A stretch of 64,000 nucleotides of DNA from an uncultured Alphaproteobacteria bacterium (GTDB lineage Bacteria > Pseudomonadota > Alphaproteobacteria > RF32 > CAG-239), in contig CALXTS010000001.1 in the NCBI GenBank assembly GCA_944391465.1, positions 26,441 through 90,440 on the forward strand, read 5' to 3'. The translations under genes were made by a program, and so were the position numbers. This document shows positions 5,461 to 51,158 of this stretch, in pieces (position 1 is the stretch's first letter; each line of letters begins with the position of its first letter). The notes below the pieces were generated by a model. The model was given only the letters and a program-made list of their open reading frames with translations. It searched no databases and had not been told where the DNA came from.

Positions 5461-6285
5461 TTATTCAGAAATATCTGTGTCCGATAAATCTATAGGCTCA
5501 TTAATGTAGCTTTCGTATTCTTCTGCTGTTAAGCAATTCGGATCTTTTTTGCTAATTGTGTCATATATTTCTAAAAAATCAGTGTGTGAAATTAAGGGTT
5601 CTGTGTTTTCATAATTTTTCATCATTTGAACATTGTAATCAGCAAATTCTTCTTTGCTGATGCAGTTATCTGCATTTTTATCCATTTGGTAAATATTTTC
5701 GGCTGTTTGCTCAACTTTGATGTTTTCTATTAAATTATCGACAAATTCTTGAGGGTCTATATTTTTTAATTGTTCGGTAGTTTCTTCCAGTCTATGCTTC
5801 ATTTCGTCCAGTTTGGCAAGGCTTTCTTCCATACTCGGAATATCTTGTTCGTTGTATATGCCGTCTTTATTGCGATCCATCTGGCGAAAACGTTCTTTTA
5901 TCATCCATTCTTGAATATCGTTCCAGAAATTAAGAAATTCTTGTTCTGATAATTTATTATCATTTGAGGTATCGGCTTTTTTAAAAAATTCCATAATTGT
6001 TTTTTGATTAGTTTGTTTTTGTTCATCGGTAAGTAGTTTGTTGTAATTTAATCCTTCAATGAATTTTGATGTTTCTCTGTCGGAGATATAGTGGTCATTA
6101 TTTATATCTAGCAATTGCATTGAGGATTGTAAAACTTCTTGATATTGCGGAGAATTTTTCATTGTATCTTTGAGGTTCTTTACCATTGTTTGTTCATCGA
6201 AAGAAAAAGTTGTTTGAGTAAAAGCAGTGTTTGTGTTTACGATGCTTATTATTCCAAGACAAAGTCCAAAATAAATTTTTTTCAT
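5461..6285 (-). CDS. Secreted calcium-binding protein with four EF-hand loops.
   Basis: An N-terminal signal peptide (MKKIYFGLCLGIISIVNTNTAFT). Four canonical 12-residue loops: DINNDHYISDRE, DTSNDNKLSEQE, DRNKDGIYNEQD, DKNADNCISKEE. Confidence 0.7.
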   Translation of the reverse strand: MKKIYFGLCLGIISIVNTNTAFTQTTFSFDEQTMVKNLKDTMKNSPQYQEVLQSSMQLLDINNDHYISDRETSKFIEGLNYNKLLTDEQKQTNQKTIMEFFKKADTSNDNKLSEQEFLNFWNDIQEWMIKERFRQMDRNKDGIYNEQDIPSMEESLAKLDEMKHRLEETTEQLKNIDPQEFVDNLIENIKVEQTAENIYQMDKNADNCISKEEFADYNVQMMKNYENTEPLISHTDFLEIYDTISKKDPNCLTAEEYESYINEPIDLSDTDISE

Positions 6286-6460
6286 AATTACTATCCTGTT
6301 TAGAAATGTTTTTTATGTATCTGATTGTAATAGCAAATAATATTAATCTCAAGAATAGGGTGATAAAATTTGTGTGTAAAAAAGATATGCCGTTGTAATA
6401 TGTTTTTTTTATAAGCTACACTGTCTGTAGAGAGTGTATTGTTTGAGTTATGAGGAAAAG

Positions 6461-8086
6461 ATGAAAGTTGTTGTTATAGGCGGAGGTGCCGGAGGTTCAA
6501 GTTTTGCAGCCAGAATGCGTCGCTTGGATGATAAGGCGCAAATTACGGTATTGGAAAAAAGTGCGGAAACTTCAATTGCCAGTTGCGGATTGCCTTATTT
6601 TATCGGTAATGTGATTACTGAACGGAGTAAAATGCAGGTAACTACTCCCGATGTTATGAAAAAGGTCTTTAATATTGATGTCAGACTGAATTCTGAGGCT
6701 GTAAAAATAGACGTCGTCAATAAAAAAGTTCTGACTAAGAATAACGAAGTTTTTGAGTATGATAAGTTGGTTCTTTCAACCGGGGCTAAGGCGTTTGTTC
6801 CTTCTATAGACGGTCTTGAAAATTTACCTTATTTTACGGTAAAAAGTTTGGCAGATGCAGATAAAATTAAAGCATATATTTCTTCTTATAAACCCCAGAC
6901 GGCTGTTGTTATCGGCGGAGGATTCATTGGTGTTGAAGTTGCTGAAAATCTTTGTCATTTGGGGCTAAAAACTTCTCTTGTTGAAGCAGTTCCTCAAGTG
7001 CTTTCTCCTTTAGATGAGGAAATGGCAGCGCCAATTCAACTTGAAATGAGAGAAAAAGGTGTACGGCTTTATTTGAATGACGGAGTACAAAAAGTTGAAA
7101 AAAATGTGCTCGTTCTTAATTCAGGTAAAAAGATTTCTGCTGAAATGTTGGTTTTGGCAATAGGTGTCAGGCCAGAAACGGAATTGGCAAAAGATGCCGG
7201 AATTAGGTTAACAGAAAAAGGCGCCATTGTTACAAACGAATATATGCAAACTAATATTGCTGATATTTATGCTTGTGGTGACAGTGTTGCCGTAACGGAT
7301 TTTGTATCCGGGCAATCAGCCATGATTGCTTTAGCTGGTCCCGCTAATCGGCAAGGGCGTTTGATTGCTGACCATATTGCTCAAAATCATCCGTATCCTT
7401 ATAAGGGAACCTTAGGAACCGGTATTGTTAAAGTTTTTGATTTGACAGCGGCTTTTACCGGTAATAATGAAAAACAACTTCAGCGGGCAGGGGTTGCTTA
7501 TCAAAAAATGATTATAACCTGTAGTTCTCATGCCGGATATTATCCGAAATCAGAAAATCTGATTCTAAAAGTTTTGTTTGATGAAACCGGAAAAATCTTG
7601 GGTGCTCAGGCTGTTGGTAAAGATGGTGTCGATAAAAGAATAGATGTAATTGCTACTGTTATTCGACTAAATGGAACAGTCTCTGATTTAAGAGATGCCG
7701 AACTTTGTTATGCTCCTCCTTATTCGGGTGCTAAAGATCCTATAAATATAATCGGAATGGCTATTGAAAATATGCAAAATGGTTTGAATAATCCTTATTT
7801 GGGAACGGATTTTTCCGATATGGCAATTGTAGATGTTCGCCCGCCTGAGGTCTATGCTCAAGGGCATATTGAAGGTGCGGTTAATATTCCGGCGGCACAA
7901 ATCAGAGCTCGATATCAAGAACTCCCTAAAAATAAACCAATAATGGTCTATTGTGTAAAGGGATATACAAGCTATGTTGTTTCAAGATTTTTGGCTCAAA
8001 ATGGTTTTGATAATGTCTTGAGTTATTCGGGAGGTTGGACGTTTTATAAAATTTTAAAAGATAATTTTGATAAAAGTACAGACTAA
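6461..8086 (+). CDS. CoA-disulfide reductase / NAD(P)H oxidase family flavoprotein with a C-terminal rhodanese domain (CoADR-RHD type). The ORF track starts at 6434; the start is more likely MKVVVIGGG at 6461.
   Basis: GGGAGG FAD motif, the active-site Cys in SCGLPY, a second GGGFIG NAD motif, and a C-terminal rhodanese module (VDVRPPEVY...YCVKGYTSY). Confidence 0.8.
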   Translation: MKVVVIGGGAGGSSFAARMRRLDDKAQITVLEKSAETSIASCGLPYFIGNVITERSKMQVTTPDVMKKVFNIDVRLNSEAVKIDVVNKKVLTKNNEVFEYDKLVLSTGAKAFVPSIDGLENLPYFTVKSLADADKIKAYISSYKPQTAVVIGGGFIGVEVAENLCHLGLKTSLVEAVPQVLSPLDEEMAAPIQLEMREKGVRLYLNDGVQKVEKNVLVLNSGKKISAEMLVLAIGVRPETELAKDAGIRLTEKGAIVTNEYMQTNIADIYACGDSVAVTDFVSGQSAMIALAGPANRQGRLIADHIAQNHPYPYKGTLGTGIVKVFDLTAAFTGNNEKQLQRAGVAYQKMIITCSSHAGYYPKSENLILKVLFDETGKILGAQAVGKDGVDKRIDVIATVIRLNGTVSDLRDAELCYAPPYSGAKDPINIIGMAIENMQNGLNNPYLGTDFSDMAIVDVRPPEVYAQGHIEGAVNIPAAQIRARYQELPKNKPIMVYCVKGYTSYVVSRFLAQNGFDNVLSYSGGWTFYKILKDNFDKSTD

Positions 8087-10210: not shown

Positions 10211-11528
10211 ACTTTTCATTGCTTTGTTTTTTGAGTTTCATTAAATCTTTGAGATTATTAATGTGTTTCTTTTGTAAGTGTTTGGGCGCATGATTAAATT
10301 TACTGAAAGTAGATAATTTGCCATGATTCTTTTTCAAAGCCATTTGTTTGGCACCTTCACCTTTATTACCAACGGCTTTAATATCTTTTATCAGCTTTTG
10401 TTGTGCGGCCTCACTTAGTTTTTCAGAACTGTTTAAGGCTTTGCTCAGTGAAGAGGAAAGACCGTATTCTTTATATATTACATAACTGTACGCCATTTTT
10501 TCTTTGCTAATATCTTGGGGAAGGCTGAAGATGCCTTTGGCTATTTGTTGCTCAATTTGCTGATAGAGTTTTTCTTTTTTTGTTTTTGAACTCAGAATTT
10601 CTATCGTATTGTCATAATAACGGTTCCAGATACTTTGTTTGGAAATTTCTTGTTCAGATGTTTTTGAGCTCGAAAGATTGCTGACTTTTTGCCAGTGAAC
10701 TTCAGGAGCATATGTCTGAACAGTGTCTTGTTTTTGTTCTGAAATATTTTCTTGATGGTTGCTTGTGGTGTTTTCAGAAGAACAACCCGATTTTATACCA
10801 AACACACTTCCCAAAAGCGTTAATGTTGTTAAAGCGGCTATTTTAACTTTGTTTCCAAATCGAAAACGATTTGATTGTGTTTTTGATGGTTGAGGTTGGT
10901 TTTGTATAGATGTGTTTTCTTTAATTAAGGTGCGAATTTTTTGTTTTGCCTCTTCTTCAGTTTCTTCTGCCGGATGACAGATAACGCTGATATAATTCAT
11001 TGTTGCTTGATAGTCTTCCGGTTTTAAAATAATTTTATCTTTAACTATAGCGTCGGCATAGGCAGAAGCCTCGTTTTTTAATCTTTTAATTTCTTTTTTG
11101 CGTGATTGTCTGAAAAACATCGTCAGCCATATCTTTTTATGTAAAGAACGGTATCTTTCTGATTTTTTACGGAGTTTGTTTGAGGATAAATATTTTACGT
11201 CTTTTGATTTTGGATTAATTTTTTCCCAAAAAGTTTTGTTTGCTTCTTCCAGGTATTGTTTTATATCAAAATCGGCTTTTTTTTGCAGACGGTTTAAAAG
11301 TTCATCTTTTTGAAAATTTCCGAATATATTAACATAATCTGCCCATATTTTAATATCTTCTGCGGAAATCAGAATTTTATTTTTGGCAAGTTTATCAAGC
11401 AACTCATCTGCTCGATTATTAATTTCTTCCATTTTTGCGTATGTTTTAATTGAGAAACTTTTACTTCTAAGTTTTTTATATTTAGAAATATCCTGACGTA
11501 ATGATTTTATTAATTTTGTTTTATCCAT
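10209..11528 (-). CDS. Hypothetical Lys-rich protein, 439 aa, with a single central TM segment and an anti-sigma-like bitopic topology.
   Basis: A long ORF with a central hydrophobic stretch (KIAALTTLTLLGSVFGI). No catalytic motif was recognised. Confidence 0.5.
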   Translation of the reverse strand: MDKTKLIKSLRQDISKYKKLRSKSFSIKTYAKMEEINNRADELLDKLAKNKILISAEDIKIWADYVNIFGNFQKDELLNRLQKKADFDIKQYLEEANKTFWEKINPKSKDVKYLSSNKLRKKSERYRSLHKKIWLTMFFRQSRKKEIKRLKNEASAYADAIVKDKIILKPEDYQATMNYISVICHPAEETEEEAKQKIRTLIKENTSIQNQPQPSKTQSNRFRFGNKVKIAALTTLTLLGSVFGIKSGCSSENTTSNHQENISEQKQDTVQTYAPEVHWQKVSNLSSSKTSEQEISKQSIWNRYYDNTIEILSSKTKKEKLYQQIEQQIAKGIFSLPQDISKEKMAYSYVIYKEYGLSSSLSKALNSSEKLSEAAQQKLIKDIKAVGNKGEGAKQMALKKNHGKLSTFSKFNHAPKHLQKKHINNLKDLMKLKKQSNEK

Positions 11529-11656
11529 TGTTTTGCCGTAATTTGTTTTAATTTTTTAATGTCATAGGGGGCTTGTTATAAATGCTTGAAAACTTTTTGT
11601 CAAGCGCTTTGTTGTTTGCGAGAAGCCTTGCGGAAATTACAAGGCTTCTCTATTTT

Positions 11657-11932
11657 TTATTTTTTGGGATATTGTTTTTTTATTGAGCTAATAAAATCTT
11701 TCCATACCGTTGTATGATTAACCATATCATGGTATATCATATCTAATTGTTCGGCGAGAGGAGGGTACGCTAATTCTCTGTTTTGCCGATATCCTAGCGT
11801 ATCTTCTCGCGGAGAGACCATGCAGATATCATGGTTTTCCAATTCGCTAAGTTCTAAGCTCATCTTGGTTGCTTTGGCTGCAAAAGATGCGTATTGTTGT
11901 GCCGTGTAAGGGTATTTTAAAAGATTATCCAT
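11657..11932 (-). CDS. Hypothetical 91-aa protein downstream of the tail-fibre gene. A tail-fibre assembly or chaperone role is possible.
   Basis: The ORF starts 12 nt after the tail-fibre stop on the same strand. Confidence 0.4.
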   Translation of the reverse strand: MDNLLKYPYTAQQYASFAAKATKMSLELSELENHDICMVSPREDTLGYRQNRELAYPPLAEQLDMIYHDMVNHTTVWKDFISSIKKQYPKK

Positions 11933-11944
11933 TTTTTATTCCTT

Positions 11945-13381
11945 TCATGCTTGTTCCGCTCCATATCCATAGGCTCGCCAGATAATGCCCCATTCGCCTT
12001 CTTCTGTTGAAACGCTGCGAGTGCGAAAGCCCGTTGTTGTTTGTAGAAATGTATTACCATAGTAGTCTAGTTGGTTTGTGTAACATCTTAATGTTGTTTG
12101 AATGTGGTAATTGGTATCTCGGTAAGGTTGTAGCAAATTTACCGGAAATTTACTTAATGAATTGTCTGTCCAAAAAGCATAACCACCTTGTTCAAGCCAA
12201 CCACTTTTATATCTGCGGTACCAGCTCTCTCCTTCGCTCCAACTTTCAACAACAAAATCTATTCCGGGCATGACGTTGCTCAAGTCTGTTTTTACGGCTT
12301 CTCCAACTTTTTGGTCTATCAAATTTTGAATGCTGGCAAATTGAGCTTCACTGACATTTTCAAATTTGTTGGCAATGACAATATAAAAATATAAACCATT
12401 GTTTTCTTTATTGCCAAAATATGGAAGTCTTACACTTTTGTTTTCTTCATCTACTACATAAAAACGACAGTAACTATTGCCACTTTCATCAGTGTTGGCT
12501 AAAAGTTCTGCGGTGTATTCTTCTTGCGTTTTGGCGTATTGAGCATATTCTTCATTATTAATTGATAAGGCCCTTAGCCGTAACATTTCTGTCCAGAAAT
12601 CAGGATAGCCGCTATCACATCCACTTATTAAATATCCTTCAGCGTAATTTGGATCATTTAACGGAAGTAGGCCTGCGTATGATGCCGGATGATCAAAACT
12701 AATTATACTGCCAATATGTAAAAAACGACTTTCTCTAGAGGCTTGTTGAGCCAGTTGAGCTTCTTCTTTAGCTTTTTCAAATGCATTTTGAGATTCCGTT
12801 GCCGAGGTTTGCGCTGATGTTGCGCTTGCTTGGGCATTTTGAGCTGCATTGAGTGTTTCACTGTGGTATGTGGTCATCAAATCATTAAATTCATCAATTT
12901 GAATTTTTGAATTGGTTAATCCGGTTCCATCATTATTCCAGATAATGGCTTTATTTGGAGAAGGTTGCGGAAATTCTTTTTTAAGTCCGGAATTATTTGA
13001 ATAGACCGGAAGCAAAAAAGAGCGATTAAGTGCTTCGGCAATTTGTTGGGTGCAAGCTATTTGATAATTAAATTCATAATTGAGTGCTTTACTTCTTATT
13101 TCTCCGCCTTCTTGAAAGTCACTGACGCGTTTGATGCTTAGTTCTCTGACAATTGAAATGACGGTATCTTTAGCCGGAGGAGTTCCAAATATAACACTGC
13201 CTCCGGTTTCTGATGTTGAAAACTCAATGCTGAATCCTTCATTGGTTTTTATATTGTCAATATAAACGCAAATATTACCGCTTTCAAAGATTAAAAACGG
13301 AAAGACAAACGTGGTTTGAAGACCATCTGCGATATAGTTGATGTGCGGAATGGTCTCATCAATTGTAATATTTTTTTCCAT
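11945..13381 (-). CDS. Phage T7 gp17-like tail fibre protein (N-terminal tail-attachment domain plus a coiled-coil shaft).
   Basis: The N-terminus (YIADGLQTTFVFPFLIF...VISIVRELSIKRVSDFQEGGEIRSKALNYEFNYQIACTQQIAEAL) aligns by eye with the T7 gp17 N-terminal domain (YQLDGSNRDFNIPFEYL...[37 protein letters not shown]). It is followed by a Q/A/S-rich heptad region, as in gp17. Confidence 0.65.
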   Translation of the reverse strand: MEKNITIDETIPHINYIADGLQTTFVFPFLIFESGNICVYIDNIKTNEGFSIEFSTSETGGSVIFGTPPAKDTVISIVRELSIKRVSDFQEGGEIRSKALNYEFNYQIACTQQIAEALNRSFLLPVYSNNSGLKKEFPQPSPNKAIIWNNDGTGLTNSKIQIDEFNDLMTTYHSETLNAAQNAQASATSAQTSATESQNAFEKAKEEAQLAQQASRESRFLHIGSIISFDHPASYAGLLPLNDPNYAEGYLISGCDSGYPDFWTEMLRLRALSINNEEYAQYAKTQEEYTAELLANTDESGNSYCRFYVVDEENKSVRLPYFGNKENNGLYFYIVIANKFENVSEAQFASIQNLIDQKVGEAVKTDLSNVMPGIDFVVESWSEGESWYRRYKSGWLEQGGYAFWTDNSLSKFPVNLLQPYRDTNYHIQTTLRCYTNQLDYYGNTFLQTTTGFRTRSVSTEEGEWGIIWRAYGYGAEQA

Positions 13382-13403
13382 GAGTGTTCCTTGTATTAAA
13401 TTG

Positions 13404-13440
13404 CAAAAAAAAACTCTTTTCTGTGCAGAAAAGAGTTTTA
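13404..13440 (-). terminator. Rho-independent terminator after hpnE on the minus strand.
   Basis: aaactcttttctg / tgc / cagaaaagagttt hairpin. The plus-strand A9 run becomes a T9 run on the minus strand. Confidence 0.8.
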
Positions 13441-13511
13441 AAATGGCAAAATTATCCCTTTGCCGAAATAATCTATAACAAATTAAATTGATAAAGTCAA
13501 GGAAAATATTC

Positions 13512-14600
13512 CTATTTTTGCTTTTTCTCTTTGGTTAAAGCCGTCTTTACGGCTCGTCTTGCCGAAAGGATAGCCGCCTCAATGGAACATGGGAAATCTT
13601 TCATTGTCCAGTCTCCGGCAATAAACATATTTCCATATTTTGTTTGTGCGTTTTCAGGGCGGAGAATATTGTTATATACATCTTGTGCGATGGTTGCGTT
13701 TTGGTGAATAATAACTTTATGTGGAGGTAAAAAAGCTGAATTTACTCCACGAAGGATATCTAGTTGTTTCCAAAGTCTTTCGGGGAGGGCTTTTATTTCT
13801 TCAACTGTCATGCGAGCATCAGAAATTGTGAATGAAACAATATCTTCATTAATAAATACCCAATCGGCTAATCCGTTTATTATTCCCATATAGCCGGCTA
13901 ATTTAGGTAAATTTATTTCTTGTGACGTGCGAAAATGAACGTTGATTATGCTGTTAAAAGTAAAATCGCGACTTTGAAATATTTTTGAATAAGCAGCTGC
14001 GTCTAAAGCAACAATAACAATATCATTTTTATCTAACTCCAATATTCCTTTATTGAAGTGTAAGGTTGCTATTTTTCCAAATTCTACACCTACACTTTCT
14101 AAGCGATGTCCGTATTTTATTTCATCTGCGTAGATAAGCATTGGATTAATTAATCTTTGTGTTAAATCATTTTTTGAAAAATAGACGCCGAGTTGGTGTT
14201 TGCTCCACGGAAAAAGTTTCCAGCAGATATTTTTTATCATTTTGCGGGGAATATCTTCGGCTTGAGTGTTGCACATTGATTTGAGTATTTGTCGATGGTA
14301 TTTGAAAATTTTGCTGGTAATGGTGTCTTTTTCTGCATCCCAAAAGTAGGTTTGGGACGGCCAGCGATGAACTCCGGTCAGAGCTGAAGCCATTCTGTTT
14401 CCTCGCAAAATTACATGTGTCGCATTATCTAAGCGGCACCCCATTTCTTTGTCATCATATGAATAACAGCGTCCTCCGGGACGATTGTTTGCTTCATAGA
14501 TAATAATTTTGCTTTGCGGGCGTTGTTTTCTTAGAAAACGTGAACACATCAATCCGGCAATTCCGGCTCCTATAATATGATATGTCGGTTGGTTTGGCAT
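13512..14600 (-). CDS. hpnE: Squalene-associated FAD-dependent desaturase (hydroxysqualene dehydroxylase) HpnE.
   Basis: An N-terminal dinucleotide-binding motif (HIIGAGIAGLMCS) and amine-oxidase-like architecture. It is the third gene after two squalene/phytoene-synthase paralogues. Confidence 0.7.
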   Translation of the reverse strand: MPNQPTYHIIGAGIAGLMCSRFLRKQRPQSKIIIYEANNRPGGRCYSYDDKEMGCRLDNATHVILRGNRMASALTGVHRWPSQTYFWDAEKDTITSKIFKYHRQILKSMCNTQAEDIPRKMIKNICWKLFPWSKHQLGVYFSKNDLTQRLINPMLIYADEIKYGHRLESVGVEFGKIATLHFNKGILELDKNDIVIVALDAAAYSKIFQSRDFTFNSIINVHFRTSQEINLPKLAGYMGIINGLADWVFINEDIVSFTISDARMTVEEIKALPERLWKQLDILRGVNSAFLPPHKVIIHQNATIAQDVYNNILRPENAQTKYGNMFIAGDWTMKDFPCSIEAAILSARRAVKTALTKEKKQK

Positions 14601-14602
14601 TA

Positions 14603-15436
14603 TTATTTTTCCATATAGGCTTTGAGTGTCAAACAGAGTTTTAAAAATTTACTGACTTTTGGTTTGGGCGATATTATCTCCCATCCACGATTTTGCATGA
14701 TATCAAAATATCTTTTATAAACATATGCAATAGCTTTTACCGGACGGGCTATTTTTTTATCAAGTTTCTTTATTTGTCTGAAAGCCTCTTGATAATATTC
14801 ATCGGCAAGTTGAGCAAGATCCTCTCGAGCAATAGCTAAGTTTTTATCGACAACAACAGTCATCGGGTCCCTGGATATTATTCCCGCTTTTCGCAAGCAT
14901 TCTTCAGGGATGTAGAGCCGTTGCGCCATGGCGTCTTCTTTTACGTCACGTAAAATATTGGTAATTTGCAAAGCTGTTCCCAGCGAGGTGGACAAGTTTT
15001 CGATTTGTTTTTCGTCTTTGCATCCAAAAATTCTTAAAGATAAATTTCCGGGAACGCCGGCAACTCCTCGGCAATAACGTTTAAAATCTTCCATTGACGG
15101 GGCTTGAATAGGAAAGGGGAGATCCATGGCTATACTATCTATCATACGGATAAACTCTTCTTTGGGAAGACCAAATCTCATACAGTTTTTGTAAATGCGA
15201 CGGCCAATATCCGTGCTGGGCTGTTTTTTATCAAAAATATTGTCCATCTCTTCTCGCCAGTCGTTGATTATTTCCAGTTTTTCTTCAACACTGTCATTGC
15301 CGTCAACAATGTCATCTAAATGCCGAAACAAGGCGTATATGGTAAACATGGCATTGCGACGGGCGCGAGGCAAGAAACGCATGCTCCAAAAAAAAGATGT
15401 TCCTGATTTTTTTACCATGTTTTTGATGTTATTCAT
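14603..15436 (-). CDS. hpnD: Squalene/phytoene synthase family protein, probably presqualene diphosphate synthase HpnD. The start is taken at the internal MNNIKNM, which avoids overlap with the upstream gene.
   Basis: Trans-isoprenyl diphosphate synthase head-to-head motifs (YALFRHLDDIVDG; ...NILRDVKEDA). It is the second gene of the operon. Confidence 0.7.
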   Translation of the reverse strand: MNNIKNMVKKSGTSFFWSMRFLPRARRNAMFTIYALFRHLDDIVDGNDSVEEKLEIINDWREEMDNIFDKKQPSTDIGRRIYKNCMRFGLPKEEFIRMIDSIAMDLPFPIQAPSMEDFKRYCRGVAGVPGNLSLRIFGCKDEKQIENLSTSLGTALQITNILRDVKEDAMAQRLYIPEECLRKAGIISRDPMTVVVDKNLAIAREDLAQLADEYYQEAFRQIKKLDKKIARPVKAIAYVYKRYFDIMQNRGWEIISPKPKVSKFLKLCLTLKAYMEK

Positions 15437-16299
15437 TTTATTGTTCCGACAGTTCTTTTTCTGGTAAATAACCCTCTCATTCCTCCGATTATGGATGATT
15501 TTATCCAATCAGTACGGGATAGTTTAATTTCTTGTGAGAGAATATCATTCTTTTGTAGTTTTTTTATCATACAATTAGTTAAAGAAAGTATAATTCCGAG
15601 TTCTATTTTCAAACGTTTGTTTTTTACAATTGAGGGAAGAAGCTCGGCATCTTTGAGCATGGATTGTTGGCGGGCGAGAATTTCATTTTTGAGTTCTGTA
15701 AGCCCTGGTGTACTGTATGTCAGGTACAAATCACTATCTTGGACATCATAATGTTTACACATATCTTCAGGTAGATATATGCGTCGTAGCATCATCGCGT
15801 CATATTTTATATCTTGGATGTGGTTGACGATTTGTAGGACGGTACATAGTGTTGCGGCCGGAAGATAGGTTGATGGATTTTCATTGTGAATGGCCAACAT
15901 AAAACGTCCGACCGGTACTGCTGAATAGTTGCAATAATCTATGAGTTCATCCCAAATCCGAGGTCTGATATTCTCAGCATCTCGACGGAAGGCTTTTAAT
16001 AAATCCGTATAAAGTGAGGCGTCTAAATTTTCAGATTTAAATAACTGTCCGAGGGCACTGGCTTCGGTACTTGCTTTATTTTTTTGGGGATTTAAAAATG
16101 CTGTTTCATATTGGTTTAGAAGGTGTAATTTTTCGTCCGGACTTAATTCATTATTATCCGCAATATCATCGGCACTGCGCGCTGCTTTGTAATATGCCAT
16201 GACTAAAGGGCGCAGTTTTTTATTTATAAATTTACCGACGGTAAAATTTTCATCAGGTGCATTTTTTTTGCGTATTTTGTTCATATTGCCTCCAGCCAT
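15433..16299 (-). CDS. hpnC: Squalene/phytoene synthase family protein, probably hydroxysqualene synthase HpnC.
   Basis: ENFTVG near the N-terminus, [14 protein letters not shown] and [12 protein letters not shown] motifs. It is the first gene of the hpn operon. Confidence 0.7.
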
Positions 16300-17630
16300 T
16301 TTTGTAAATCAGCCAAAGCTCTTTGCGTATAGGCTTTTTTACGATCCATTCCTTTGATTTTATGAAATTTTCCGTTTGCTGTCGTTTCGCCGCTGATGGT
16401 CGGAAATATCCCAAAATTTATATTCATCGGTTGGAAGTTTTCAATATTTGTATCATCTCTTAAATGTTTTAACATTGCTCCAAACGCAGTTGTCTCCGGC
16501 GGAAGAATTGCTTCTTGTTTTAAAACTTCACAAGCTGTAAAATAACCAGCAAGCCATCCGATTGATGCACTTTCAATATATCCTTCACAGCCGGTGATTT
16601 GTCCGGCAAATCTGATGTGAGGTTTGCTTTTTAATCTCAGATAATTATCTAGTACTATCGGGCTTTTTATAAAAGTGTTTTTGTGTATTCCTCCCAAGCG
16701 AGCAAATTCGGCATTTTCAAGCCCCGGAATCATTCTGAAAATACGTTGTTGTTCTCCATATTTTAATTTGGTTTGGAAACCGACGATATTTCTTAAAGTA
16801 TCTTCCTTGTTATCTTGGCGGAGCTGTACAACGGCATGTGCTTTTATGTTGGGGCTGTGCGGATTGGTTAGTCCGACCGGTTTCATCGGACCATAGAGCA
16901 GGGTGTCGCGTCCTCTTTCTGCCATTACCTCAATCGGAAGGCAACCGTCAAAATATTCAGCTTTTTCAAAGTCATGGAATTCGACTTTATCTGCTTTGAG
17001 CAATTCCTCAATAAATTTTTCATATTGTTCTTTATTCATGGGGCAGTTGATATAATCAAATTTATCCCCTTTATCATATCGAGATTGATACCAGGCTTTT
17101 GTAAAGTCAATGCTATCTTTGTAAACAACAGGAGCGATGGCATCGTAAAAATTAAGATACTGATTGTTGGTTTCCTTGAGTATGGCTTTGATTAAGTTTT
17201 CAGATGTCAGTGGTCCGCTGGCTATAATGTATTTTTCATTGTTGTTTTCTGGTAGCTCGGTTACTTCTTCATTAATAAAACTTATGTATGGGTGTGCGTG
17301 CAGTTTCTCTGTTACCATATGGGCAAAGCCTTCTCTGTCAACGGCTAAGGCTCCTCCGGCGGGGACTTTACAGGCATCAGCGCATTGCATTATTAAAGAA
17401 TCGGCACGACGCATTTCTTCATGCATTAGTCCGACGGCATTGTGTTCGAAATCATCTGAACGAAGTGAATTGGAACAAACAAGTTCTGCACACCATTCAC
17501 TTTTATGTGCAGGAGAGAATTTTTTTGGGCGCATTTCATGAATGATGACCTCTATCCCTCTTTTGGCGAGTTGCCAAGCTGCTTCCGAGCCGGCTAATCC
17601 TGCTCCTACAATGTGAACTTTCTCTGCCAT
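16281..17630 (-). CDS. trmFO: Methylenetetrahydrofolate--tRNA-(uracil54-C5)-methyltransferase TrmFO (Gid).
   Basis: An FAD-binding N-terminus ([18 protein letters not shown]) and overall GidA-like, shorter TrmFO architecture. This protein is characteristic of alphaproteobacteria and Firmicutes. Confidence 0.85.
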
Positions 17631-46463: not shown

Positions 46464-46475
46464 ACATACTAAATA

Positions 46476-46506
46476 AAAAATCCCCTTTATAAAGGGGATT
46501 TTTTAT
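46476..46506. terminator. Bidirectional terminator shared by zupT and tRNA-Ser.
   Basis: aaaaaatcccctttat / aaaggggatttttt palindrome. Confidence 0.75.
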
Positions 46507-46594
46507 TGGCGGAGAGTACAGGACTCGAACCTGTGCATCGTTATTCACGATGACGGATTAGCAATCCGCTGCATTACCACTCTGCCAACTCTCC
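46507..46594 (-). tRNA. tRNA-Ser (anticodon GCT).
   Basis: Reverse complement GGAGAGTTGGCAGAGTGGTAATGCAGCGGATTGCTAATCCGTC... with a long variable arm, an ACTCTCCGCCA 3' end, and the anticodon loop ttGCTaa. Confidence 0.85.
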
Positions 46595-47018
46595 ATCTGT
46601 GGTACGGACTTATATTTATATTATGTTTTTAGCTCCGTCAATAGCTTTTTTGAAATTTGTGCAACTTATTTTGTTTTTGAGTAAAATTTATTGTTTTTTA
46701 TTGAGTTTGGTTTGTTCTTTTTTTTGATTTTACAAATTTGATATAAAATGTTATATTGTCGCTGTCTAAAATTTTGAAAGTTGTTTTGTTGGTTTTAGAA
46801 GATGAAAAACTTATTATCGATATCGAAAGATACTTTTCGGGAGCTTTGAAAAAGTTAAAACATCTTGTAAATTTTTATAATATACTTAAAAACAAAAATA
46901 AAAATTCTGTATTTGTAGATAGATTCTTATTATCCGGCCTGGGGAGAGAATGAGGCTATTTTTTGTGTCCTTATGGGGCTTTAGTTGAAAATAGGTTTTT
47001 CATGATTATTCTAAAATT

Positions 47019-48296
47019 ATGAAAGAAGAGGGGTTGCTCATGGCTAAAAAATTTGATTATGAACGTATTTGTAAAAAATTTTATAAGCTCAATGTTGGTG
47101 CTTTATTTGTGAAAATGGGTCCCGAAAAACTTAAAATTGTTTTTAATATCATAAAAAAAGTTAAAGATGATATTGATTATGTTATTTGGATTGCTCCTTC
47201 TCAGTATTTGGCTACTAAAATTTATATGGAAGATATTGCGTATGTTGCAGGGGAGGATATTGCCAGTAAAATTTGTTTCTTTTCCATGGAAAATATTTCA
47301 GTCAAAGATAATGAATATTTAAAACTTTATAATATAAGTGACCGAAATAAGGTTTTTTGTGTTGTCGATGAGAGTATTAATATCAAAAATACTAAAACCG
47401 GACGAACCAAACGTCTGATTGCCATGAAAAACAAGTTTGATTATCGTTTAATTTTGTCGGGAATGATGCTTACTCAAGGTTTGGCTGATTTATATTCTCA
47501 GGTGCAATTTTTGGATTCTGCTATTCTTAATATGACTAAAACTCAGTTTATGCATACGTTTATGCCTTATTATGAAGATGATTTTGAGGTGTCTAAACGT
47601 TGGTCAACTCCCCAAAATGAAGCAAGGTTGATTAAGATGATTCGTCCTTATATCTTGGCTTTTGATTTAAGAGATGATTTTAAAATTATTTATCACAGTA
47701 CTGATTTTCAATTAACTCCGAAGGAAAAAGAATCTTATCAACAGGAAAAAGATGCTTTTTTAAAAGGACGTGACAGAGTGGCTTTTTTACAAGTCGTTCA
47801 GCGTTTCCAATATTTTTATACTATTAGCAGTGATAAGGTTAAGGCTTTAATCAAACTTGTCGATGAAATTCAAAAACGTAATGAAAAAGTTATTATTTAT
47901 ACAAAATATTTGAGTGAAATTAAGTTTTTTAAAGAGGCTCAATTGCTGGGAAAAAACAAATATGTGATTATGTCCGGTAATACTAACAAACTTAACGCTT
48001 TAAAACGGTTTGAAAAAAATGTGGATATTATGTTGTGCACATATAAAGTTGAAGCGCCTCGTTTGAATCTTACCGGTTTTAATAATATTATCTATTTTAC
48101 TCAAACCTATGATTATAAAGATAAAATTCAAACTCTGAATAATTTTTATAATAATAATATCAAAGAAATAAACGTTTATGACTTTTGGGTGGATACAAAA
48201 TTAGAAGGCTTGATTAAAGATAATTTACTTCGCAAAAAAAATGTGCTAAATAATGTTTGTAGTGTTATGTCAAAAAATGAGGCCTTGGAACTATGA
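47019..48296 (+). CDS. SNF2/DEAD-like helicase-family protein with degenerate ATPase motifs. It has no canonical GxGKT, and motif VI lacks the arginines.
   Basis: Motif II DESINIKN (cf. DEAHRIKN), motif III RLILSGMMLTQGLADLYSQVQFL (cf. RLLLTGTPLQN.L.ELW.LL.FL), and helicase-C blocks (KVIIYTKYLSEIKFF; MLCTYKVEAPRLNLTGFNNIIYF). The Walker-A position reads MGPEKLK. Confidence 0.55.
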   Translation: MKEEGLLMAKKFDYERICKKFYKLNVGALFVKMGPEKLKIVFNIIKKVKDDIDYVIWIAPSQYLATKIYMEDIAYVAGEDIASKICFFSMENISVKDNEYLKLYNISDRNKVFCVVDESINIKNTKTGRTKRLIAMKNKFDYRLILSGMMLTQGLADLYSQVQFLDSAILNMTKTQFMHTFMPYYEDDFEVSKRWSTPQNEARLIKMIRPYILAFDLRDDFKIIYHSTDFQLTPKEKESYQQEKDAFLKGRDRVAFLQVVQRFQYFYTISSDKVKALIKLVDEIQKRNEKVIIYTKYLSEIKFFKEAQLLGKNKYVIMSGNTNKLNALKRFEKNVDIMLCTYKVEAPRLNLTGFNNIIYFTQTYDYKDKIQTLNNFYNNNIKEINVYDFWVDTKLEGLIKDNLLRKKNVLNNVCSVMSKNEALEL

Positions 48297-49594
48297 AGAT
48301 ATATAAAGATAAAAATGTTTATGACGCAACTATTGATAGAATTAAATTTGCGTTTGATAACTTTGATAATGTTTATGTATCTTTTTCCGGTGGTAAGGAC
48401 AGCGGCTTGTTGCTAAGTATGGTGCTTGATTATAAACGTCAGCACAATATTTCTAAAAAAATAGGGGTGTTTCATCAGGATTTTGAAGCTCAATATGAAT
48501 TGACAACCGAATATGTTACCAAAATGTTTGAGGAAAATATTGATGATATTGAACCTTATTGGGTTTGTTTGCCGATGGGGTCAAGGTGTGCGGTAAGCAA
48601 CTACCAGATGTATTGGTATCCGTGGGATGATGAAAAAGAAGAACTTTGGGTTCGTGAAATGCCTAAAATGCCTTATATCATCAATTTAAAAAACAATCCG
48701 TTTGATTTTTATAAATACAAAATGTCTCAAGAAGATTTGTATGCCGAGTTTGGGCAATGGTATGCCAGAACGCATAAGGGAAAAACAATTTGTCTTTTGG
48801 GTATTAGAGCTGATGAGTCTATTAATCGTTATCGCGCTTATGCTAATACTCGGAAAGTGTTAATGAAAAATTCTCAGTGGACGACCAAAATGGGAAAAAA
48901 TTTTTATAATGCTTATCCTATGTATGATTGGTCAACAAAAGATGTTTGGATTGCTAATGGAAAATTTGGCTATGAATATAACAAAATTTATGACTTGTAT
49001 TATAAAGCCGGTTTGTCTATTAATCAAATGAGAGTTTCAAGTCCATATCACGAAAACGCTAAGGAAAGTCTCAATTTGTACAGAGTCTTAGAACCTGCTA
49101 CTTGGGCTAAAGTCGTTTCTCGTGTTAATGGTGCTAATTTTGCGGCAATGTATGGAAAATCTAAGTTAATGGGGGTTGGAAAGATTACTTTGCCGGCAGG
49201 GCATACCTGGCGTTCTTATGTCAAATTCCTGTTGGCAACTTTACCCAATGATATTAGAGAAAATTATATTGCCAAATTTAAAACTTCCATCCGCTTTTGG
49301 TGGAAAAAAGGTGGCGTCGTTAGTGATCAAGCGTTGGAGGAGTTGGAGGCTTGCAATTATCGTATTCGACACAATGGTCGCAGTGGGTATAATAAAGAAA
49401 AAGACAGAATCTTATTCTTGGGGACTCCTGATAATACTGATGATATAAAATCGACTATTGATATTCCGTCTTGGAAGAGAATGGCCGTTTGTATTCTCAA
49501 AAATGACCATTTATGTAAGTATATGGGGTTTGCTCAGACTAAAAAACAAACTCAACGTGAAAAGGAATTAATTGAGAAATATAAAAGTTTGTGA
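48293..49594 (+). CDS. PAPS-reductase-like PP-loop ATP pyrophosphatase family protein with a DUF3440-like C-terminal region (IbrA/DndC-like).
   Basis: PP-loop VYVSFSGGKDSGLLLSMV, a length of about 430 aa, and a 4-nt overlap (ATGA) with the upstream SNF2-like gene. Confidence 0.65.
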   Translation: MKIYKDKNVYDATIDRIKFAFDNFDNVYVSFSGGKDSGLLLSMVLDYKRQHNISKKIGVFHQDFEAQYELTTEYVTKMFEENIDDIEPYWVCLPMGSRCAVSNYQMYWYPWDDEKEELWVREMPKMPYIINLKNNPFDFYKYKMSQEDLYAEFGQWYARTHKGKTICLLGIRADESINRYRAYANTRKVLMKNSQWTTKMGKNFYNAYPMYDWSTKDVWIANGKFGYEYNKIYDLYYKAGLSINQMRVSSPYHENAKESLNLYRVLEPATWAKVVSRVNGANFAAMYGKSKLMGVGKITLPAGHTWRSYVKFLLATLPNDIRENYIAKFKTSIRFWWKKGGVVSDQALEELEACNYRIRHNGRSGYNKEKDRILFLGTPDNTDDIKSTIDIPSWKRMAVCILKNDHLCKYMGFAQTKKQTQREKELIEKYKSL

Positions 49595-49603
49595 GGAATA
49601 ATA

Positions 49604-50119
49604 ATGGCTGATTTTGTTAGTCCGGTTTATAATGTCATGGCTGTACCTGTTGAGAAGGTTTTTGCTAATGACTATAATCCGAATAAAGTGGCACCACCGG
49701 AGATGAAATTGTTAGAGCTTTCCATTTGGGAAGATGGTTTTACTCAGCCGGTTGTGTGTTATTATGACAAAGAGGGGGATAAATATATTGTTGTTGATGG
49801 TTTCCATCGTTATACAATTATGAAAACCAGCGAACGGATTTATGCCAGAGAACACGGAAAACTTCCTATTGTGGTCATTGATAAGGATTTAGGTGAAAGA
49901 ATGGCCTCCACGATTCGACATAATCGCGCCAGAGGTAGTCATAATGTTGATTTGATGAGTAATATTGTGGCTGAGTTGGTTGAAATGGGAAAAAGTGATA
50001 GTTGGATTTGTAAGAATATCGGTATGTCTGCCGACGAGTTGTTACGAATGAAACAAGTAACCGGTTTGGCGGCTTTATTTAAAGACGATGAGTTTTCCTT
50101 GAGTTGGGAAACTAAATAA
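49604..50119 (+). CDS. ParB-like nuclease-domain (ParB/Srx, DGQHR-type) protein (IbrB/DndB-like).
   Basis: KYIVVDGFHRYTIMK (cf. DG.HR) and TIRHNRARGSHN blocks. It sits 9 nt downstream of the PP-loop gene. Confidence 0.6.
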   Translation: MADFVSPVYNVMAVPVEKVFANDYNPNKVAPPEMKLLELSIWEDGFTQPVVCYYDKEGDKYIVVDGFHRYTIMKTSERIYAREHGKLPIVVIDKDLGERMASTIRHNRARGSHNVDLMSNIVAELVEMGKSDSWICKNIGMSADELLRMKQVTGLAALFKDDEFSLSWETK

Positions 50120-50135
50120 AGTGCAATGTTATAAC

Positions 50136-50168
50136 AAAAAAGCGCAGTTTAAAAACTGCGCTTTTTTG
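50136..50168 (+). terminator. Rho-independent terminator closing the three-gene cassette.
   Basis: aaaaaagcgcagttt / aaaa / actgcgctttttt. Confidence 0.8.
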
Positions 50169-50243
50169 TATCGGATTCTCTTTAAGCTATAAAGATACTG
50201 ATTATATACTGAGGGGAAAGTTAATTGTTTTATAGAGGAAAGT

Positions 50244-51158
50244 ATGATGAAACAAGTACAATTAAATACCGGAAGTATGATTCCGATTATAGGGTTAGGA
50301 ACGTGGAAATCAATGCCTGGCGAATTATATTCGGCTATTCGGTGGGCTATTAAACTTGGTTATAAGCATTTTGATTGTGCGGCTATTTACGGAAATGAAA
50401 AAGAGGCTGGTCAAGCGTTAGCAGATGCAATTAAAGAAGGAGATGTTAAACGAGAAGAATTGTTTGTAACATCGAAATTATGGAATGATGCTCATGCCGC
50501 GCAAGATGTGGCTCCGGCTTTGGAAAATACTTTGCGGGATTTGCAATTGGATTATTTGGATTTGTATTTGATTCATTGGCCGGTGGCTCAAAGAAAAGGG
50601 ACAGGTATTCCTGAAAATTCTGATGATATTTTAAATATTCCGGAGGAAGTGACTTGGGCAGAAATGGAAAAACTTTATCTCTTGGGTAAGACAAAATCTA
50701 TAGGTGTTTCTAATTTCAGTATTAAAAAGCTACAACAATTAATACAAAAGGCTGATATCATTCCCGCTGTAAACCAGATAGAATCGCATCCGTTTTTACA
50801 ACAGAAAAAGATGATTGATTTTTGTAAGCAAAATAATATCGCCATTACGGCTTATTCTCCGCTCGGTTCCGGAGGAGATAGTAATAGAAGCGTGCTAGAT
50901 AATCAGATTATTAAAGAGATTGCATGGCGTGTTAAAGCTACTCCGGCTCAAGTTGTTTTGGCTTGGCAAGTGCTTCGAGGTGTTATTGTTATTCCTAAAT
51001 CTATCCATGAAGAACGTTTGCGTGAAAATTTATCCGCATTAAATATTGAACTTGATGCAACTGATATTGAAAAGATTAATGGGTTAGATGAAAATTATCG
51101 TTTTATTGACGGAAAAGACTTCCTTTATGGAAGTGAAGATTTGTGGGATGAAGACTGA
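50244..51158 (+). CDS. Aldo/keto reductase family oxidoreductase.
   Basis: AKR catalytic tetrad context (IPIIGLGTWK; HFDCAAIYGNE; LYLIHWP; IGVSNF). Confidence 0.85.
   Translation: MMKQVQLNTGSMIPIIGLGTWKSMPGELYSAIRWAIKLGYKHFDCAAIYGNEKEAGQALADAIKEGDVKREELFVTSKLWNDAHAAQDVAPALENTLRDLQLDYLDLYLIHWPVAQRKGTGIPENSDDILNIPEEVTWAEMEKLYLLGKTKSIGVSNFSIKKLQQLIQKADIIPAVNQIESHPFLQQKKMIDFCKQNNIAITAYSPLGSGGDSNRSVLDNQIIKEIAWRVKATPAQVVLAWQVLRGVIVIPKSIHEERLRENLSALNIELDATDIEKINGLDENYRFIDGKDFLYGSEDLWDED

Follow-up and report, generated by a model that had tools for sequence, protein, structure and literature searches.

An SNF2-like, IbrA-type and IbrB-type gene trio in a gut alphaproteobacterium and its relatives in bacteria and phages

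Thousands of gut bacterial genomes and hundreds of phages, as well as Escherichia coli K-12, encode proteins of the IbrA/YbdN and IbrB/YbdM families. In E. coli the ybdNM genes form an operon that is repressed by the LysR-type regulator CitR/YbdO (PMC9068703), and YbdM has been called 'completely uncharacterized' (PMC8764527). In the open-access literature searched, IbrA and IbrB appear solely as annotation labels and no mechanistic study of the two was found; the same literature held no description of a trio made of an SNF2-like gene, IbrA and IbrB, of a small fourth gene beside it or of a lineage in which its ATPase is dead, and earlier comparative-genomics surveys may mention the association of the three. 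Such a trio is the subject of the present report. It lies within 64,000 nucleotides from an uncultured alphaproteobacterium (contig CALXTS010000001.1 of assembly GCA_944391465.1; this whole stretch is called the window below) and comprises, all on the plus strand, gene 1, which encodes an SNF2-fold protein of 418 amino acids (aa) at 47040-48296, within an open reading frame (ORF) that opens at 47019, gene 2, which encodes a 433-aa enzyme of the IbrA/YbdN type (48293-49594), and gene 3, which encodes a 171-aa protein of the IbrB/YbdM type (49604-50119).

Related parts occur in several described systems that act on DNA. In the Dnd phosphorothioation system, DndC carries a [4Fe-4S] centre on three cysteines and a separate cysteine dyad, and the SWI2/SNF2 domain of DndH has no ATP-binding signatures or arginine fingers and is proposed to have been kept for DNA binding (both PMC10853773). 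ParB176 is needed for the phage T-dioxygenase 5mYOX176 to act on double-stranded DNA (dsDNA; PMC13229309) and DpdB is required for DpdA in the Dpd 7-deazaguanine system (as summarised in PMC12839542).

Distribution and history of the trio

The cassette in the window is best explained as a phage module of which a copy has become fixed in the chromosome ('domesticated'). An earlier note on this DNA had not recognised the three genes as any named system; the combination is not a one-off but a widespread phage module that also occurs in bacterial chromosomes. A profile scan with gene 1 recovered 73 loci in species-representative bacterial genomes, namely about 57 in gut Alphaproteobacteria (CAG:495, Ca. 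Scatocola and similar metagenome-assembled genomes, MAGs), about 14 in Opitutales, and one each in a Holosporaceae MAG and a Melioribacteraceae MAG. Gene 1 is followed by IbrA in all 73 and IbrB is present in 71, the two exceptions being contig ends. Among viruses, 269 contigs encode a relative of gene 1, and the full trio is present in 73 of the 79 loci retrieved among them, the other six being cut by contig ends. The order of the genes in viruses is permuted by lineage (gene 1-IbrA-IbrB, IbrA-IbrB-gene 1 or gene 1-IbrB-IbrA), which argues for a functional coupling of the trio. Streptococcus phage PY4 and Lactobacillus phage AQ113 carry the same three genes, and the window's gene 1 is homologous to the helicase-like genes of both (E = 3e-27 and E = 5e-31, respectively). 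In these two phages the module sits between the lysis cassette and downstream genes of early or replication type (Cro-like, antirepressor, recombinase and replication genes). A gene upstream of IbrA in Mycobacteriophage Gaia was considered as a further counterpart of gene 1 and proved not to be homologous.

When viral loci were anchored on IbrA, IbrB accompanied it in 77 of 79, and an SNF2-like gene was found in 20 of the 45 loci that had adequate flanks. Because of these counts, and because E. coli ybdNM does without an SNF2 protein, IbrA-IbrB is the obligate core of the module and the SNF2-like protein a frequent accessory. Other genes also recur beside the viral pair. Specifically, 17 viral loci encode an ectoine-synthase-like cupin (PF06339, E = 1e-44; e.g. 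8164-8670 of L177, where L-numbers are labels of related bacterial or viral loci compared with the window), mostly placed between IbrA and IbrB, and 13 of the 17 have no SNF2-like gene. In Mycobacterium phage Gaia, gp104 (6302-7201 of L020) is annotated as an ectoine synthase/ParB multidomain protein. The other loci without an SNF2-like gene have recurrent neighbours too: an unannotated 132-aa protein in 44 loci, a stand-alone fragment that corresponds to the C-terminal portion of DUF3440 in 22, and a DEAH helicase in 13.

On the chromosome, the order seen in the window, with pgi, mutL, zupT, tRNA-Ser, the trio, an optional aldo-keto reductase (AKR) gene, lpxK and waaA, is common to 18 species-representative genomes found by the gene 1 search. 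A second search, anchored on waaA, gave the trio at this site in five contigs, two of which end inside the trio, while about 25 more distant relatives have another context after the AKR gene. Presence at the site is variable, as a check in related genomes revealed: L254, found through waaA, is syntenic and shows zupT, tRNA-Ser, a terminator, a 190-aa ORF, the AKR gene and lpxK, and no trio. In the syntenic loci IbrA is 81-94% and IbrB 84-95% identical to the window protein, with 43-92% for gene 1, compared with 74-89% for PGI, 73-86% for MutL, 69-88% for WaaA and 57-72% for LpxK. The nonsynonymous divergence (dN) tells the same: 0.03-0.08 for IbrA and IbrB, 0.07-0.12 for PGI and 0.10-0.19 for MutL, with 0.05-0.38 for gene 1, which is similar to LpxK. 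IbrA and IbrB are thus the most conserved and slowest-evolving genes of the neighbourhood. Since synonymous sites are saturated (proportion of synonymous differences, pS, 0.6-0.86), ratios of dN to synonymous divergence (dS) are indicative only, and dN together with ORF integrity was used instead; dN is far below the saturated dS in all three genes, and the ORF of gene 1 appears to be kept under purifying selection.

Synonymous sites are as saturated in the cassette as in the flanking genes, which means that cassette and chromosome have diverged in step. The picture of a recent island next to a tRNA gene does not survive this result, nor the sharing of the site by the 18 genomes and the five waaA contigs. 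No ORF for an integrase was found in the window, and a search for direct repeats flanking the cassette or for a repeat of the tRNA 3′ end returned nothing beyond a 12-nt match at chance level. The orientation of the tRNA in L001, L005 and L021, where its 3′ end faces the trio, is compatible with an ancient integration. GC content was also compared across lineages: a dip over gene 1 is present but is intrinsic to the gene, as GC rises from gene 1 through IbrA to IbrB in the window and likewise in Opitutales, a Streptococcus phage and three further alphaproteobacterial lineages, and the GC of the cassette tracks that of the host in every lineage compared.

The three proteins

Gene 1 matches the Pfam model SNF2-rel_dom (PF00176) at E = 3e-8, with 33.5 bits against a cut-off of 24.9, and Helicase_C at E = 2e-4, with 21.9 bits, slightly under the cut-off. 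It matches phrog_62 at E = 5.5e-38, and the profile of its family aligns with the Sulfolobus SNF2 core 1z63 at E = 4e-25. The family is small, with 257 cluster representatives at E <= 1e-30 among 1.84 billion, and ten long relatives that were inspected have unannotated extensions or a GNAT domain only, with no fusion to ParB or PAPS_reduct. Pfam and family profile searches upheld all three domain assignments made earlier (SNF2, PP-loop and ParB), and the suspicion that Walker A and motif VI of gene 1 are degenerate was borne out as well: Walker A reads GPEKL instead of GxGKT and motif VI is devoid of arginines (NNFYNNN). Motif III is SGMM, DESI is retained, and the IKN that follows motif II is invariant in the family. 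With these motifs the gene 1 product of the window is predicted to be catalytically dead.

The same state characterizes the whole lineage. In the approximately 57 alphaproteobacterial species Walker A and the motif VI arginines are missing throughout while the ORF of gene 1 is kept; Walker A is scrambled and hypervariable, and in several species the glutamate of DExx is lost too (DGS, DDS, DDC). The copies in phages, Opitutales, Holosporaceae and Melioribacteraceae, on the other hand, keep GTGKT or GSGKT, DESI, NGTP, GLNLQ and QxxxRxxRxGQ, and those of phages look like active translocases. A single alphaproteobacterial species, L085, does not have an intact ORF: its gene 1 (5956-7260) carries one frameshift, the rest of the sequence being near-identical to the L005 protein, and its IbrA and IbrB are 90% and 92% identical to the window proteins. 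This frameshift is probably an assembly error, and could also be a recent loss. Because the ORF is intact in all species but this one and its dN resembles that of LpxK, the alphaproteobacterial gene 1 can be regarded as a conserved pseudo-enzyme and not a pseudogene.

A small ORF precedes gene 1 in 13 of the 17 recovered bacterial loci that have an intact ATPase. It encodes 86 aa in L008 (7775-8035), occurs also in L073-L092 and in viral loci such as L103, and its product ends in a C-terminal tail of the form H-x-P..I.P.[YF]NQ..IDEL[KR]. Most viral loci encode, upstream of gene 1, a related protein of about 88-127 aa (phrog_5809, 27058 and 8389). No Pfam match was obtained for the small protein, which may be a fourth subunit of the module. 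The gene is missing from all loci with a dead ATPase, the window included.

Genes 2 and 3 can be assigned to the IbrA/YbdN and IbrB/YbdM families, a likeness that had already been suggested. IbrA matches DUF3440 (PF11922) in its C-terminal part at E = 7.7e-77 (257.6 bits against a cut-off of 25) and PAPS_reduct (PF01507) in its N-terminal part at E = 1.7e-9, above the cut-off; it matches phrog_2302 at E = 3.8e-113 and is 32% identical to YbdN of E. coli K-12 over its full length of 433 aa (E = 5e-68). The PP-loop SGGKDS occupies residues 32-37, and in an alignment of 165 unique bacterial and viral homologs this motif and some 50 further residues are at least 97% conserved. IbrA is accordingly predicted to be an enzyme of the PP-loop ATP-pyrophosphatase type with an intact active site. 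As for cysteines in the 165 sequences, Cys92 is conserved in 99% and Cys408 in 95%, and one of Cys398 and Cys400 is present in most, while YbdN has Cys408 only, without Cys92; no CC dyad and no CxxC motif was found among them. With this pattern a metal site of another kind than that of DndC is conceivable. An AlphaFold2 model is confident for the PP-loop N-domain, and the DUF3440 half has a predicted local distance difference test (pLDDT) value below 50. The Foldseek neighbours of the N-domain are CysH, FMN adenylyltransferase (FMNAT), CysD, LarE, TtuA, TilS and GMP synthetase, all of them weak matches with target TM-scores of at most 0.5, and a sequence search of the PDB returned no IbrA-like protein. 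One phage record labels its IbrA homolog 'adenylyltransferase'. A search for homologs with an IbrA profile added little diversity, as a single abundant species was dominant. As a side observation on abundance, one IbrA sequence, labelled P0150, is recorded in 8544 blocks of the assembly collection and lies on contigs as long as 2 Mb. It comes from a gut alphaproteobacterium of very high abundance, whose trio occupies another chromosomal site, between HD/msrAB and ArsB-type transporter genes.

IbrB is a match for phrog_2159 (E = 7e-77) and shares 49% identity with E. coli YbdM (E = 6e-54). Pfam gives ParB_N with 20.2 bits, under the cut-off of 26.3, and the family profile aligns with Noc (7ol9), a CTP-binding protein of the ParB family, at E = 4e-7, with DGFHR placed on the GERR box. 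The motifs NxYNPNxVAPPE, VDG[FY]HR and ASTIRHNRARGxH are invariant across alphaproteobacteria, Firmicutes phages and YbdM, and the C-terminal segment resembles a helix-turn-helix (HTH). IbrB thus appears to be a ParB/Srx-fold protein with an HTH-like tail; it also gives weak matches to the kinases SbnI and SerK.

Operon layout, the tRNA-Ser unit and neighbouring genes

The three co-directional ORFs stand where the earlier note had placed them (47019-48296, 48293-49594 and 49604-50119), with the ATGA overlap and the 9-nt gap it described. Gene 1 stops and gene 2 starts within CT-ATGA-AG (overlap at 48293-48296), genes 2 and 3 are separated by 9 nt (GGAATAATA), and the GAGGA Shine-Dalgarno sequence of gene 3 overlaps the stop codon of IbrA; the three genes are translationally coupled. 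Gene 1 itself probably starts at ATG 47040, after the Shine-Dalgarno sequence AAGAGGGG, which yields 418 aa as compared with 417-418 aa in relatives. The operon is closed by a bidirectional terminator-like hairpin at 50134-50169 with perfect 17-nt arms, an A-run and a T-run, in keeping with the terminator noted there before. The housekeeping flanks were also recognised correctly and can be extended by pgi and waaA: upstream are a peptidase M16 gene, pgi, mutL and zupT, and downstream the AKR gene, lpxK, waaA and a DUF374 gene. The AKR (plus strand) and lpxK (minus strand) ORFs, as called by the ORF finder, are convergent and overlap by 34 nt at their 3′ ends (51125-51158), and AKR is missing from this position in L005, L021 and L085. 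Neither a cysteine desulfurase nor DndD/E or nuclease genes were found near the trio among the window ORFs and their neighbours, in line with the absence of desulfurase and DndD/E partners pointed out before.

The tRNA-Ser(GCT) gene reported next to the cassette is there, at 46507-46594 according to both ARAGORN and Rfam. It is on the minus strand, and the cassette therefore abuts its 5′ end. It belongs to a transcription unit of about 200 bp (46473-46672, minus strand) made up of the tRNA, a promoter region of approximately 80 nt and a terminator hairpin (46472-46507), and this unit is inverted in the window alone. In L001, L005 and L021 ARAGORN places the tRNA on the plus strand, with the 3′ end towards the trio, and the tRNA segment of the window aligns on the minus strand to L001, L005, L021 and L022 with 82-91% identity. 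The same tRNA stands between zupT and gene 1 in 18 of 18 syntenic species, and it belongs to the ancestral content of the locus.

The spacer from zupT to gene 1 ranges from 260 to 2501 nt across species and contains differing ORFs. What the earlier note had called a 424-nt AT-rich non-coding stretch upstream of gene 1 becomes, with the start moved to 47040, a spacer of 445 nt (46595-47039), which is for the most part a deletion remnant of a gene. Specifically, a 65-aa ORF (46756-46953, plus strand) joins residues ~93-131 to residues ~371-396 of a Rossmann-type protein of 396 aa, and tblastn of the L001 version of this protein against the spacer gave E = 1e-7 and 2e-6. L001, L002 and L004 have an intact gene for the 396-aa protein, and L056 has a version with 60% identity; the protein gives weak matches to 2-Hacid_dh and AdoHcyase_NAD. 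A block directly 5′ of gene 1 (46895-47039, plus strand) is conserved, with 79% identity to L001 over 137 nt, and contains the Shine-Dalgarno sequence of gene 1 as well as a promoter-like site (46985-47012) at which 9 of 12 positions are matched, which is weak evidence. An Rfam scan of the upstream spacer gave no known RNA family.

Two observations concern the corresponding places in other genomes. In L254 the slot between tRNA-Ser and AKR is taken by an unrelated 190-aa ORF on the opposite strand (13498-14070), so the cargo next to tRNA-Ser differs across species. In the Opitutales loci L008-L011 the trio has purA, mcsA, mcsB and clpC upstream, and 3′ of it (~11500-17000) are strain-variable genes for an Imm53 immunity protein and RHS-repeat toxin-type proteins.

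Possible function and comparison with known systems

A role of the trio in defence or DNA modification is possible. The reading to which we lean, tentatively and as something a little short of probable, is that IbrA, guided by IbrB, acts on DNA in an ATP-dependent manner of the adenylation type, and that the dead SNF2 protein serves as a scaffold. IbrB would bind DNA, probably under the control of a nucleotide, and recruit or activate IbrA; and IbrA would spend ATP to adenylate DNA, either at a base carbonyl or at a phosphate of the backbone, and so begin a covalent modification that would alter the reading or cutting of the DNA. The SNF2 partner may originally have given ATP-driven access to duplex DNA and would survive here as a DNA-binding or scaffold subunit. 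DNA is proposed as the target because IbrA is partnered by a protein with the fold of dsDNA translocases and by a ParB-type protein that has an HTH-like tail, because among the profiles of other families DndC comes closest to IbrA, if weakly, and because there are precedents both for ParB-fold partners (PMC13229309; Dpd as summarised in PMC12839542) and for an inactive SNF2 domain in DndH (PMC10853773). Since there is no nuclease partner, the host copy would be an orphan marking or regulatory system and not restriction-type immunity. A more far-reaching version, which we consider possible but doubtful, is that the module represents a new adenylation-based class of nucleic-acid modification with an IbrA-IbrB core and, in phages, an SNF2 motor and a small coupling protein; E. 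coli, gut Alphaproteobacteria and Opitutales would have captured it independently as an orphan epigenetic or regulatory system, and the alphaproteobacterial motor would by now be a pseudo-enzyme scaffold.

Several points weigh against adenylation of DNA by IbrA. We know of no substrate or product for any member of the IbrA/IbrB families, IbrAB are reportedly activators of prophage eib genes and not modification enzymes, and PP-loop enzymes mostly act on tRNA or small molecules. The low-confidence DUF3440 half of the IbrA model leaves a nucleic-acid-binding surface unseen, and the ParB/Srx fold, to which IbrB belongs with its SbnI and SerK matches, includes small-molecule kinases. Moreover, no modification-dependent or modification-sensitive nuclease was found linked to the module, and at least one close relative (L254) can do without the trio.

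Some of these points feed into rival explanations. The trio might form a regulatory nucleoprotein complex that does not modify DNA, in which IbrB would be a nucleotide-switched regulator, IbrA an obligatory co-factor and the SNF2 protein a remodeller or scaffold at promoters, serving a conserved regulon. The label 'co-activator of prophage gene expression' that sources give to the family, the reported activation of eib genes in E. coli, the HTH-like tail of IbrB, the missing nuclease partner, the housekeeping-level conservation and the position of the phage module between lysis and early/replication-type genes would all suit such a complex. The PP-loop site and dozens of IbrA residues conserved to at least 97% speak for catalysis instead of a purely structural role, however, and a phage module with a seemingly active translocase suggests action along DNA and not at single promoters; we consider the complex rather unlikely, noting that it is compatible with modification, which could be the very means of activation. 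More improbable still, in our judgement, is a target other than DNA, whereby IbrA would modify tRNA or another RNA, or adenylylate an oxyanion for a small molecule in the manner of CysD and FMNAT, with IbrB as a kinase or NTPase partner. The Foldseek neighbours of IbrA point in this direction, as do the SbnI and SerK matches, the EctC-like cupin (a small-molecule enzyme fold) between viral IbrA and IbrB and the 'adenylyltransferase' label of the phage homolog. These structural matches are all weak, though, the tight linkage to an SNF2 dsDNA-translocase fold holds in phages and bacteria alike, and IbrB, besides having its HTH-like tail, aligns most closely with Noc and ParB, which are CTPases that bind DNA.

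The two remaining readings are poorly supported. A phosphorothioation or other self/non-self defence module of the Dnd, Ssp or BREX4 kind, recently inserted next to tRNA-Ser, would be expected to combine a PAPS-reductase-family protein, a ParB-family protein and an NTPase, as Dnd does and as the cassette does; weak matches to DndC, BrxP, ZorD and DpdE, the variable presence shown by L254 and the ancestral tRNA 3′ end facing the cassette can be added to its credit. Yet IbrA scores 21.8 bits with the DndC model TIGR03183, for which the cut-off is 290.4, and its cysteines do not appear to make up a three-cysteine cluster plus dyad; IbrB matches neither DUF262 nor COG1479 DGQHR, Pfam giving ParB_N only, with the motif DG[FY]HR; no DndA, DndD, DndE, DndFGH, PglZ or nuclease gene was found in the window or in the related loci examined; and the neighbours are housekeeping and not defence genes, the ATPase here is apparently dead, and the cassette has diverged with its flanks and shows no integrase or att repeat. 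The analogy to DndC and DndB drawn in the earlier note is not supported by these results, and we think such a module very improbable. We give next to no credence to a decaying, non-functional prophage remnant, which the destroyed ATPase motifs and low GC of gene 1, the gene remnant in the adjoining spacer and the missing trio in one relative might suggest, and which the conservation data already contradict: the three ORFs are intact in about 57 species with the L085 frameshift as a singleton, all three genes have dN << dS (with dS saturated), IbrA and IbrB are the slowest-evolving genes of the locus, and translational coupling and terminator are preserved.

If IbrA does modify DNA, this would be a new enzymatic route to DNA modification, and would explain a long-standing pair of E. 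coli 'y-genes'. That the pair is an obligate unit which in a subset of phages recruits an SNF2 translocase and a small protein points to duplex DNA, and that one abundant gut lineage conserves it above glycolytic and repair enzymes implies a function important to the cell. The active and dead versions of the ATPase, together with one syntenic relative devoid of the trio, form a natural matched set.

In comparison with known systems, the cassette does not appear to be a Dnd, Ssp, BREX-4 or Dpd system. The PADLOC-DB 2.0 models detected no complete defence system, in agreement with the earlier failure to recognise a named one, and the partial matches were weak (ZorD with 56.7 bits over the helicase core, DpdE, DndC, BrxP, and PD-Lambda-5_A at E = 0.028). 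Dnd likewise brings together a PP-loop enzyme of the PAPS-reductase family, a protein of the ParB superfamily (DndB) and an NTPase (DndD), but the cassette has no restriction module; the PADLOC DndC model matches IbrA at E = 2.6e-7 over residues 161-264 only, and the cysteine pattern of IbrA differs from that of DndC. The likeness to DndH lies in an SNF2 domain that has lost its ATPase signatures, but DndH keeps the C-terminal lobe only, fused in a large restriction protein, whereas gene 1 keeps both lobes in a stand-alone protein of 418 aa. With 5mYOX176/ParB176 and with Dpd it has in common a ParB-fold partner of the kind needed by an enzyme that acts on duplex DNA, and Dpd further includes the SNF2-like DpdE, to which gene 1 gives weak matches. 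The catalytic partner in the window is, however, a PP-loop enzyme and not a dioxygenase or a transglycosylase, with no TGT/DpdA gene present, and IbrB has an HTH-like tail whereas ParB176 has no obvious DNA-binding domain.

The closest counterparts are found in E. coli and in phages. IbrA/IbrB of E. coli ECOR-9 and their chromosomal paralogs YbdN/YbdM of K-12 have the same domains as the window proteins (PAPS_reduct with DUF3440, and ParB-like with an HTH-like tail), and their genes lie side by side and overlap, A before B, as in the adjacent A-B order of the window; unlike the window trio, ybdNM has no SNF2-like partner. The module of phages PY4 and AQ113 differs from that of the window in its intact GTGKT, NGTP, GLNLQ and QxxxRxxRxGQ motifs and, mostly, in a small upstream protein, both of which the lineage of the window has lost. 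It consists of the same three families in the same gene order, and its IbrB is 63-65% identical to that of the window.

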